A stretch of 63,237 nt of DNA, filler included, from Reclinomonas americana ATCC 50394 (Eukaryota): the NCBI GenBank assembly GCA_048213135.1. It is 14 parts of 14 records of this genome, joined end to end, with 100 filler letters (N's around TTAATTAATTAA, not from the genome) between each part and the next. Parts side by side here need not be neighbours in the genome. Positions count along the whole stretch, not along the records: positions 1 to 6,140 come from AFZH01020395.1; 13 more parts are not named here. One strand, written 5' to 3'. Each line of letters begins with the position of its first letter. The first letter of the stretch is position 1. Shown in pieces: positions 560-3,096 of the stretch. The position numbers and the translations under genes are program-made. The notes under the pieces are model-generated. The model made no database searches, was not told where the DNA came from, and saw nothing but the letters and a program-made list of their open reading frames with translations.

Positions 560-3096
560 ATGGACTTGTCGGTGCGTCACGTTGGCGATCTGGTGCGTCT
601 TGGGCGAGAGAACGCGGCGCAGGGACTGTATGGAGTCGGGCGCGCGCAGCTGGAGGGCGCACTGGCGACGCTCAATGTGTTGCGTTGTTGTTGTTGAGCG
701 GAAAAACTCGCTCTGTGTGGGCGTGTGTGTGCTGACAAAGCACACAGGTTGATTGCGAGACAGGCGGGGCAGCGGCAGTACGAGCAGGTGTGGTGGTGAT
801 TCGATTCGCGCAGGCCACTGACGTTTTTTCTCATTTATCATCATCATCATCATCATCTCGCAGTTGCGGTTGCGTCTGCTCAGCGAGGTGCAGCTGTTGA
901 AGCAATTGGAGACGCAGCTGGGGGAGCTGCGGGTGCGTGTTTGTGTGTGCCTGTTGAGTATTCCGTTCGTGTTGACTCTGATGCGCATACGCACACACAG
1001 CGAGAGGTGCCGAGAGCGAGACAGCGCAAGCGTAGCGTCTCAACGCCGGCCTCACCGGCTCCGGATAACAGACGACGACGTGTGTCGGTGGTGCCTGCTA
1101 CTCCGCCTGCACGCGCCAGCAGACCAGTCGCCAGGCGAGTGTCGGGGAGAGACATTCCAGTACACATTGTCGGCCCGGAACCAGTGGCCAAGGTAGCCGC
1201 TTGCGGAAGCACAAGGTCGCCCTCTCCGAAGACTCACACTGCCTGTGTGTCGTAGGAAAACCTGGCGCCTGCCGGTGAGGCCCGAGATCCTCTGACGTGG
1301 TCACCGCCTCCGTCGCCTGCACCGCCTGTGCGACAGCGATGCTCGGTCGGCCGTCGTGTGAGCGGGTGTGCGGGGGCGCCGCGAAGCATCAGTGCACCCA
1401 CCACGCCAATCAAGTCGCAGCCTGCCGAGAGGGCCGAGACACCCGCCGGACCCCGTCGCATTCGCATGCCGCGGAAACCGAGTGTGCCAAAGTTCAAGTT
1501 GCGTCTTCTTCTGCGCTGTCGCCTGTTATCGAACCGCCACTCACAGCTTCCTTGGGCAGGCGCCTCAGCGACAGCGATGGCGACACTGATAACCCCGACA
1601 ATCGTGTTGTGCAATCACAGTTGCGTGACGAGATGATGACGAGTGAGCTGCTCTCACGCTCATTGCTTTTACGTCTGCTTGCAGCTTTGACGGCTCTCGA
1701 TTCGATCCGAGCATGGTGTCGATGCTGGAGCAGGACATTCTGCAGCGCAATGTCAACGTGGCGTGGGATGATATCGCCGGTGCGTGCTGCAGTGTTGCAT
1801 ACTCGATTCTCCTCGTCTCTCACGACTCCGGATTCGGCATCGCAGAGCTGAACGAAGCCAAGGCACTACTCAAAGAAGCTGTTGTTCTGCCGCTGTGGAG
1901 ACCCGATTACTTTCGCGGCATTCGTCGTCCTTGGCGTGGCGTGCTGATGTTTGGTCCGCCGGGCACTGGCAAGACGCTGCTCGCCAAGGCTGTTGCCACT
2001 GTTTTGTCAATCTCTTCCCGTGTTTTGCCACCACTCCCGGGCCCTGCTGACCCGCTCGGGGTTTTTGCAGGAATGCCAGACGACCTTCTTCAACGTGTCG
2101 CCGGCCACACTGGTCTCCAAGTATCGCGGCGACTCGGAGAAACTCGTCCGAGTTTCGTCGCATGCCAGCTCACCAGTTTGCTTCGTCTCTTCCTTCGCTC
2201 ACCCGTGCTCTTGTCTCGCAGCTTCTGTTCGAGATGGCTCGCTTCTACGCAGTTCCGTTCGGCATTGAACTCCTCCCTGTCTCCCTTGACATGCAATTGA
2301 CTTCTATTCCCTTCCCTTCAGCCATCCACCATCTTCATCGACGAGGTTGGCACAGCCGTCTCTGTTTCTTTTTTTGTTGCCTTTGCTCCTTCCGCACACT
2401 AACCTCGCACTTGCAGATTGATAGCCTGTGCAGCTCGCGTGGCAGCAAGGACGAATGTGAATCGAGTCTGCGCATGAAAACCGAGCTGCTGGTGCAGATG
2501 GACGGCATCCACAGTGTGACTGCGGAGGGCGACGAGGCCAAGCCGGTGGTGGTGCTGGCCGCCACCAACCACCCGTGGGCGTTGGACGACGCACTGCGCC
2601 GCCGTCTCGAGAAGCGCATCTGTTGCGTCGCTTGTTTGTGGCCTTTTCGCGTCGTGCGGTCTCGTGACAAGCAAACACAGACATTCCGCTGCCGACGACC
2701 GTCGGTCGCGAGGAGCTCTTCCGAATCAATCTCCGGACTGTGGCCGTGGATCCCTCGGTGTCGTTCTCGCGGTTGGGCGACCAGACCGAGGGCTACAGCG
2801 GAGCCGACATCACCACTGTGTGTCGCGACGCGGCCTTTATGACCATGCGCCGTGCCATTGCCGGCAAGAAACCAGAAGAGATTCAGCGTCTGTCCAAAGG
2901 TGCGTCGCGCATGTGCGTGCGTGCCACCTGTTCTCGCTCTTCTCACCCACTCACTCTGCCTCTGAAACCAGCCGAACTCGAGGTGCCGATCACCGAGCGC
3001 GACTTTGTCGACGCCCTGACCAAAGTCAAGACCTCGGTGGGCGGTGAACTGCTGCACAAGTATCGCGAATGGTCCGACAACTTTAGCTCGGTGTAA
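560..3096 (+). CDS. KATNA1: Katanin p60 ATPase subunit (MIT + AAA domain), about 14 exons
   Basis: N-terminal MIT-like [146 protein letters not shown]; ends [12 protein letters not shown] (TAA 3094-3096). Confidence 0.95.

Follow-up and report, generated by a model that had tools for sequence, protein, structure and literature searches.

Introduction

Human 5' splice sites can be read by U1, a small nuclear RNA (snRNA), shifted one nucleotide downstream with cleavage left unchanged, a register that PMC4856993 and PMC11162779 attribute to Roca and Krainer 2009; for one human site a shift in the U6 register has been suggested (PMC11162779), and all non-canonical registers together are estimated to make up about 1.5% of human 5' splice sites (PMC4856993, PMC11162779). 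Non-canonical U1 registers have so far been a small minority of human sites, established one minigene at a time. Here we describe a second class of intron donors in a 63,237-base stretch of nuclear DNA from the eukaryote Reclinomonas americana (hereafter the window). These donors, of the form H|GTTNNGT (H, any base but G; most often GTTGCGT), look like the ordinary GTGCGT-type donor displaced by one nucleotide, and we refer to them as the shifted class.

The likeness to the human shifted register, as these papers set it out, lies in a U1 helix displaced one nucleotide downstream (a displacement that here would follow from the donor sequences), cleavage at the GU, the +1 G opposite C9, and a non-G exon end, as in the model oligonucleotide of PMC4856993. 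Unlike the human case, with its roughly 1.5% for all registers, the class makes up 11 of 25 introns here, shows a sharp GUUGCGU consensus in place of an AAGU-type core, and depends in all-or-none fashion on the base that ends the exon. The bulged registers described for the +2/+3 and +3 positions (Roca et al. 2012; Tan et al. 2016, PMC4856993) likewise involve a donor that looks as if one nucleotide had been inserted between +2 and +5; here, however, only T occurs at +3 and G is excluded at -1, neither of which is expected of a simple bulge.

Donor classes are also known within the canonical register, namely the LUC7-dependent left- and right-handed sites (PMC11842720) and the U5-type and U6-type sites (PMC11732430). 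Those classes, as described there, resemble ours in splitting sites by their reliance on the exon-end G or on intronic positions; they intergrade and leave the register unchanged, whereas the split here is discrete and carries an extra nucleotide. A lineage-level change in the recognition of intron ends is known from the non-canonical splice sites of tunicates (PMC13326754), which abandon the GT/AG rule, whereas the introns described here retain GT-AG and differ only in the distance to the GCGT downstream. Like U12-type introns, the shifted class presents a second sharply conserved donor motif beside the major one; unlike in U12-type introns, branch motif, branch distance and acceptor are here those of the ordinary class. 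In the open-access literature searched we found no description of a GTTGCGT donor heptamer, which turned up only in primers and unrelated sequences, or of a lineage-wide non-canonical register, and an account in a genome paper may still exist.

A second donor class and its dependence on the last exon base

Intron boundaries were placed with our own protein-guided spliced aligner, whose sole requirement is GT..AG and which carries no donor model; a variant run allows any donor dinucleotide. These donor-blind alignments, together with colinearity with solved Rieske structures, yield a strict set of 25 intron 5' boundaries in three genes of the window (katanin, SPY and Rieske). Nine donors placed by reading frame only (679, 788, 933, 1193, 1498, 14026, 15871, 4555 and 4393) were kept separate from it.

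The form H|GTTNNGT accounts for 11 of the 25 strict donors (44%), or 15 of 34 when the frame-only donors are added; eight of the 11 are exactly GTTGCGT, and the remainder are GTTTTGT, GTTTCGT and GTTCCGT. An earlier note on this DNA had claimed that such donors form a routine second class, and the count bears it out. The same holds for the enrichment by which that note had proposed to judge the class: among strict donors beginning GTT, a second GT stands at +6/+7 in 11 of 15, compared with the 8.4% at which GT occurs in intron interiors (p 1.5e-9).

The profiles of the two classes match after a one-base displacement. Ordinary donors, from -1 to +6, show G 12/14, G 14/14, T 14/14, G 10/14, C 8/14, G 14/14 and T 11/14, and shifted donors, from +1 to +7, show G 11/11, T 11/11, T 11/11, G 8/11, C 10/11, G 11/11 and T 11/11; aligned on the downstream GCGT, they are the same but for one column, which is T in the shifted and G in the ordinary class. 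The variable columns of the shifted class (+4 and +5) are those of the ordinary class (+3 and +4), and the invariant columns also match after the shift. Scored with the ordinary-class matrix, all 11 shifted donors do better after a +1 shift, the mean log-odds moving from -3.15 to +3.55. As judged from sequence, the shifted class is an ordinary donor displaced by one nucleotide, cleaved before its first G and in routine use.

The most informative feature is the exon base that precedes the donor, a rule absent from the earlier note. G occupies -1 in none of the 11 shifted donors vs 12 of the 14 other strict donors (Fisher 2e-5). Put the other way, the shifted class supplies 11 of the 13 strict donors that follow a non-G exon end and none of the 12 that follow G, and H|GUGCGU is rare (2/13 non-G strict donors). 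Among the validated donors, four begin with GTT and have no second GT (g|GTTGGCA, g|GTTTGAC, g|GTTCGTA and g|GTTTGTG), and every one is preceded by G; of the 28 shifted sites listed in the earlier note, none has G at -1.

The katanin gene

Katanin carries seven shifted donors among its 13 introns, and the 14-exon model thereby confirms the count given in the earlier note. The gene, its shifted-class introns and two ordinary comparators are:

560-3096, + strand: katanin p60 gene; 14 exons, 13 introns of 59-76 nucleotides (nt), open frame of 551 residues, colinear with 15 homologs
679-747, + strand: shifted-class intron, donor tgt|GTTGCGT, in the poorly conserved N-terminus; placed by frame continuity only
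1498-1559, + strand: shifted-class intron, donor caa|GTTGCGT, in a variable linker; placed by frame, the donor being recovered with 2 homologs with differing acceptors
1620-1684, + strand: shifted-class intron, donor aca|GTTGCGT; 5/15 homologs, and the frame requires an intron
1780-1845, + strand: ordinary-class comparator, donor ccg|GTGCGT; 15/15 homologs
2001-2070, + strand: shifted-class intron, donor act|GTTTTGT; 15/15 homologs, 6/6 with any donor allowed
2152-2221, + strand: shifted-class intron, donor cga|GTTTCGT; 15/15 and 6/6; no other boundary yields the same messenger RNA (mRNA)
2252-2321, + strand: shifted-class intron, donor gca|GTTCCGT; 15/15 and 6/6; no other boundary yields the same mRNA
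2622-2680, + strand: shifted-class intron, donor tct|GTTGCGT, within the Tyr codon of EKRIYIPLP; 15/15 and 6/6, by alignment
2900-2971, + strand: ordinary-class comparator, donor aag|GTGCGT; 14/15 homologs

An eighth GTT donor, at 2346 (gag|GTTGGCA), has no second GT; like the donors at 2001, 2152, 2252 and 2622, it was recovered with all 15 homologs under GT..AG and was still picked with 6 of 6 homologs when any donor was allowed. The seven junctions from 1780 to 2900 fall in gap-free, highly conserved columns of a MAFFT alignment of 15 full-length homologs. That cleavage precedes the first G, which the earlier note had argued from a conserved Tyr, agrees with the alignments at 2622, where the intron splits that codon.

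Two micro-exons, at 2222-2251 (30 nt) and 2322-2345 (24 nt) on the + strand, lie between three consecutive introns with shifted-type or GTT donors. They defeat simple gene finders, and the score for bridging open reading frames (ORFs) at 2252 is negative. When metagenomes were scanned for katanin loci related to this one, 25 were found, at 42-77% identity, and no close relative; seven of them were aligned, and the 15 introns found in five of these include none of the shifted class, the loci being unrelated and from compositionally different organisms.

The SPY-like and Rieske genes

All 13 introns of the SPY-like gene are backed by 5-12 of 12 homologs, and its five shifted sites by 8-12 of 12, or by 3-6 of 6 with any donor allowed:

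12543-15869, + strand: SPY-like TPR glycosyltransferase gene, conserved part; 13 introns, five of them shifted-class, with an open spliced frame
12830-12893, + strand: shifted-class intron, donor cat|GTTGCGT; 9/12 homologs, 5/6 with any donor
13583-13649, + strand: shifted-class intron, donor aat|GTTGCGT; 8/12 homologs, 3/6 with any donor
13843-13915, + strand: shifted-class intron, donor act|GTTGCGT; 8/12 homologs, 4/6 with any donor
14229-14303, + strand: shifted-class intron, donor cct|GTTGCGT; 11/12 homologs, 4/6 with any donor
14511-14574, + strand: shifted-class intron, donor gac|GTTGCGT; 12/12 homologs, 6/6 with any donor
14928-14995, + strand: ordinary-class comparator, donor tcg|GTGCGT; 12/12 homologs, 6/6 with any donor
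15871-15939, + strand: candidate shifted-class intron, donor atc|GTTGCGT, in the C-terminal tail beyond the homolog alignments; frame and coding score only

One further SPY intron, 14026-14100 on the + strand, has the donor tgt|GTGCCGT, with GT at +6/+7 and a non-G base at -1 but G at +3. It is placed by 5 of 12 homologs, and alternatives arise with unconstrained donors; the boundary may have been set wrongly, or the intron may be a rare form akin to the shifted class.

The Rieske gene provides boundaries anchored on a solved structure. On PDB chain 7jrg_E, five consecutive exon translations cover residues 103-134 (query 2-33 of 34), 137-167, 169-208, 209-231 and 239-271, and the residue gaps between them are exactly the split codons plus one six-residue exon. 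Because the exons map colinearly in this way, the donors at 4215, 4051, 3861, 3725 and 3620 are fixed.

3444-4932, - strand: mitochondrial Rieske iron-sulfur protein gene; exons colinear on 7jrg_E
4484-4555, - strand: candidate shifted-class intron, donor tca|GTTGCGT; reading frame only
4148-4215, - strand: shifted-class intron, donor cac|GTTGCGT; flanking exons at residues 103-134 and 137-167, with exactly a split codon between
3795-3861, - strand: ordinary-class comparator, donor ctg|GTGCGT; exons at residues 169-208 and 209-231
3547-3620, - strand: ordinary-register intron with T at +3, donor cag|GTTTGT; residues 209-231, then the six-residue exon and a split codon, then 239-271

The donor at 3620 begins with GTT after an exon-final G and keeps its second GT at +5/+6. 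The recurrence that the earlier note had claimed for these two genes stands at 12830, 13583, 13843, 14229 and 14511 by homologs and at 4215 by structure; 15871 and 4555 are candidates on the grounds given above, and 4393, placed by frame only, lacks the second GT.

Window-wide counts

Word counts over the whole window are independent of gene models, and their expectation was taken from dinucleotide-preserving shuffles. GTTGCGT occurs 46 times against 15.0 +/- 3.3 in the shuffled sequence, and none of 100 shuffles reached 46; GGTTGCGT accounts for just 5 of these 46 occurrences. GGTGCGT (33 observed vs 15.4 +/- 3.3) and HGTTGCGT (41 vs 12.7 +/- 3.7) are both in excess, whereas window-wide there is no excess of HGTGCGT (69 vs 64.1 +/- 8.1) or of HGTVGCGT, in which V is A, C or G (31 vs 32.7 +/- 5.2). 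Since HGTTGCGT is in excess and HGTVGCGT is not, T is specifically required at +3, as a U:A7 pair would also predict; and since GGTGCGT and HGTTGCGT are enriched and HGTGCGT is not, the extra T is used only where -1 is not G.

A strong branch and acceptor signal lies 55-85 nt downstream of 15 of the 46 GTTGCGT words, against 9.8% of all GT (p 1.8e-5), and of 23 of 102 GTGCGT words, in a supportive but noisy test to which (GT)n repeats contribute as well. Upstream of 118 strong acceptors, motif discovery is dominated by microsatellites. Our own ab initio gene finder, run without a donor model, chose GTTGCGT 14 times and GTGCGT 7-9 times, and was not used for the counts. This finder is an exon/intron dynamic programme; trained on a fixed set, it found 14-16 of the 26 known donors (5-8 of 13 under cross-validation), and when left to train itself it escalated to 316 introns, with genes overlapping.

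Features shared by both intron classes

Apart from the donor, the two classes are alike. Every one of the 33 modelled introns is GT..AG, GT being selected at the shifted-class sites even by the any-donor aligner, and the acceptor is CAG in 30 and TAG in two. A CTNAY branch motif, identified by motif matching only, is present in 28 of 33, at 5-43 nt from the 3' end (mostly 12-26 nt upstream), similarly in both classes. Validated introns in the three genes (560-3096, 3444-4932 and 12543-15869) are 59-85 nt long, mostly 62-76, and the class means of 67.6 and 70.3 nt show no difference. Because length, branch motif and CAG acceptor are common to both, the two classes seem to use the same spliceosome downstream, and the best explanation of the shifted class appears to be that its members are ordinary U2-type GT-AG introns.

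Two other assignments were rejected. Taking the second GT as the true donor adds 5 nt to the exon and breaks both frame and colinearity. U12-type introns have an RTATCCTT-type donor and a TCCTTAAC-type branch site; the donors GTTGCGT, GTTTTGT, GTTTCGT and GTTCCGT are not of that type, and the branch motifs are those of the ordinary class.

How the donor signal may be read

The reading that we favour, and to which we give slightly better than an even chance, is that a single U1 snRNA recognises the signal G-[G/U]-U-G-C-G-U, keeping to one fixed register, and that the cut is made ahead of whichever GU the signal contains. On this seven-nucleotide signal, U1 would pair through C9 with the first G, A7 with U, position 6 with G, C4 with G and A3 with U. 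Where the second letter is G, the first GU would begin there and the exon would end in the first G of the signal (G|GUGCGU, canonical register); where it is U, the first GU would begin one base earlier and cleavage would precede the first G (H|GUUGCGU). Relative to the point of cleavage, U1 would in the shifted class be displaced by +1, with the +1 G on C9, the +2 U opposite C8 and the +3 U paired with A7. The position of cleavage would be set by the GU dinucleotide in later steps (U6, U5 and Prp8) and not by the U1 register. U1 as the reader, a single type of U1, and accommodation of the extra nucleotide by U6 are all suppositions of this scheme.

The choice of class would then depend on the coding sequence: an exon that ends in G could use the cheaper canonical form, and where no G is allowed at the exon end, the G that pairs with C9 would come from the intron, at +1. 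The -1 rule would arise because G|GTTGCGT can always be improved by the loss of one T, while a non-G site cannot be made canonical without a change in the protein.

Several points weigh against this reading. Nearest-neighbour energies computed with the textbook U1 5' end are +1.9 kcal/mol for the shifted register, +2.7 for the bulged one and +1.1 for GU-only canonical pairing, against -4.8 for G|GUGCGU, so that the shifted class pairs poorly with textbook U1 in any register; the canonical H|GUGCGU (-1.2 kcal/mol) is also predicted to be more stable than the shifted form. Simple thermodynamics therefore leaves the preference for the extra U unexplained, and a special value of the G on C9, or a co-evolved U1 or protein, must be assumed. 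The preference for C opposite U1 position 5, present in both classes, is likewise not explained by textbook U1, and pairing with U10 is not suggested by the bases that shifted donors have at -1 (T 6, A 4, C 2). Searches of the 63-kb window with Rfam found no family, snRNAs included, at the gathering score, and relaxing E to 1 gave one chance-level microRNA match. The junctions themselves are drawn from protein homology, for 25 introns in three genes of one window.

The same U1 might instead keep the +1 G on C8 and the +2 U on A7, bulge out the +3 U and resume pairing at GCGU. A bulge at +2/+3 is experimentally established in human cells, with 68 predicted +2/+3 and 51 predicted +3 bulge sites (PMC4856993), the number of pairs equals that of the shifted register, and a U beside a U can slide, which would favour T at +3. 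Such a bulge should nevertheless accept other bases at +3, as the unenriched HGTVGCGT words argue against, and it should welcome a G at -1, which would add a C9 pair, yet none of the 11 donors has one; it also costs more without gaining anything over H|GUGCGU, which is rare, and its computed energy is slightly the worse of the two. Because T is required at +3 and G is excluded at -1, the shifted register is favoured over a simple +3 bulge, which we regard as unlikely; the +1 shifted U1 register proposed in the earlier note is to that extent preferred to a generic bulge, the scores of all 11 donors after shifting pointing the same way. We think it quite unlikely, too, that the standard U1 is accompanied by a dedicated second reader, be it a variant U1, a different snRNA or a protein, that would recognise GUUGCGU through a complementary sequence in the canonical register. 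Animals do have variant U1 genes, the heptamer shows strong conservation (8/11 exact) and finds no good pairing with the textbook U1 5' end whatever the register, and a strict exclusion of G at -1 could discriminate between two readers. A perfectly complementary reader would not, however, predict that the variable and invariant positions of the shifted class are those of the ordinary class after the shift, and because these columns are common to both classes one reader is favoured over a dedicated second U1.

The class might also be historical in origin, the product of recent gains of an introner-like mobile element that brings a GTTGCGT end and inserts after a non-G base. The tightly uniform lengths and the sharp heptamer would fit such an element; ordinary-class introns have the same lengths, however, and the donor varies as GTTTTGT, GTTTCGT and GTTCCGT across three consecutive katanin introns. 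An all-against-all comparison of the 33 intron interiors of this window found no family structure, only short microsatellite-like matches, the best being 19 nt at 89% (E 0.015), with the classes alike; because the interiors share nothing but such runs, the shifted introns are not a mobile-element family, and we consider this origin very improbable. That the gene models are wrong and the GTT sites unused for splicing is, in our judgement, hardly credible. The models do rest on homology, 12 of the 28 sites listed in the earlier note are not individually validated, and the ab initio finder is unreliable; against this, homology places the boundaries there even when any donor dinucleotide is allowed, eight shifted introns have no alternative boundary pair that gives the same mRNA, the Rieske exons map residue by residue on solved structures, and the motif excess is window-wide.

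Returning to a single U1 that reads one signal, its extension would be a genome-wide two-register code in this lineage, to which we give a little less than an even chance. A G opposite U1 C9 would be obligatory, supplied by the exon where the coding sequence permits and failing that by the intron's +1 G, the U1 helix then sliding one base into the intron.

Remaining listed sites and other features of the window

The 28 shifted donors of the earlier note all begin with GTT at the position and on the strand where it had placed them, and 26 have GT at +6/+7; the two that do not are 4393 (GTTGCGA) and 33273 (GTTGCGC). The 12 sites not individually validated are 19399, 20163, 20374, 20792, 60576, 31265, 31504, 33273, 33769, 47003, 58755 and 62040. 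An ORF-bridging score that is good on the training genes and too noisy elsewhere to validate sites puts 20792 at the 97th percentile, 62040 at the 96.6th, 31504 at the 95th, 58755 at the 93rd, 19399 at the 90th, 33769 at the 86th, 47003 at the 81st and 20163 at the 35th. The donor at 60576 (tac|GTTGCGT), which follows a peptide-deformylase-like exon, opens into more than 200 nt of a near-pure purine repeat of GGGAGG type (60583-60800, + strand); the candidate intron would be far longer than the validated 59-85 nt, and no acceptor was found.

The window as a whole is about 57% G+C, eukaryotic nuclear and dense in short introns. It contains 13 linkers, each of 44 N, TTAATTAATTAA and 44 N (for example at 6141-6240, 10541-10640, 22370-22469 and 59587-59686); TTAATTAATTAA being an all-frame stop linker, the window is taken to be 14 joined contigs. 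Many linkers adjoin microsatellites (CT, CA and GAA/GAG runs), and genes or introns that span a linker, such as near 31054-31153, cannot be modelled. A Pfam scan of 147 long ORFs from unannotated stretches returned only TPR, WD40 and coiled-coil matches, and because the matches are limited to these, few further genes are open to validation by homology.

Two of these stretches merit description:

55416-56492, + strand: intronless ORF of 359 residues with seven WD40 repeats (Pfam E 2.5e-80)
26351-29225, - strand: long ORFs with weak coiled-coil matches (tropomyosin, a filament-like plant protein, a centrosomin motif), all below the Pfam cut-offs

A protein search with the WD40 ORF gave mostly bacterial-type matches, the named best hits including Anaerolineae, Anabaena, Nostoc, Planctomycetes and Microcoleus; the ORF lies on a linker-bounded contig (53494-57379), and horizontal transfer or a mis-joined bacterial contig is possible. 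The matches at 26351-29225 suggest a gene for a large coiled-coil protein.

Implications

If the two-register code holds, the cleavage site of about two in five introns would no longer be tied to the U1 register, and the U6 ACAGAGA interaction and the catalytic core would routinely take one extra nucleotide, perhaps with changes in U6, U1C, LUC7 or Prp8. Should the whole genome use the shifted register for a large share of its introns, by a simple rule that depends on the final base of the exon, it would offer a natural system with thousands of cases in which to ask how the cleavage site is chosen independently of U1 and how an extra nucleotide is tolerated by U6 and the catalytic core. Gene prediction would also feel a direct effect: a donor model with a single position-weight matrix would mis-score nearly half of the introns, and our own finder, which lacked a class-aware model, stopped at 14-16 of 26 known donors. 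In such a system, a coding constraint at the end of an exon could be bought off by the intron.

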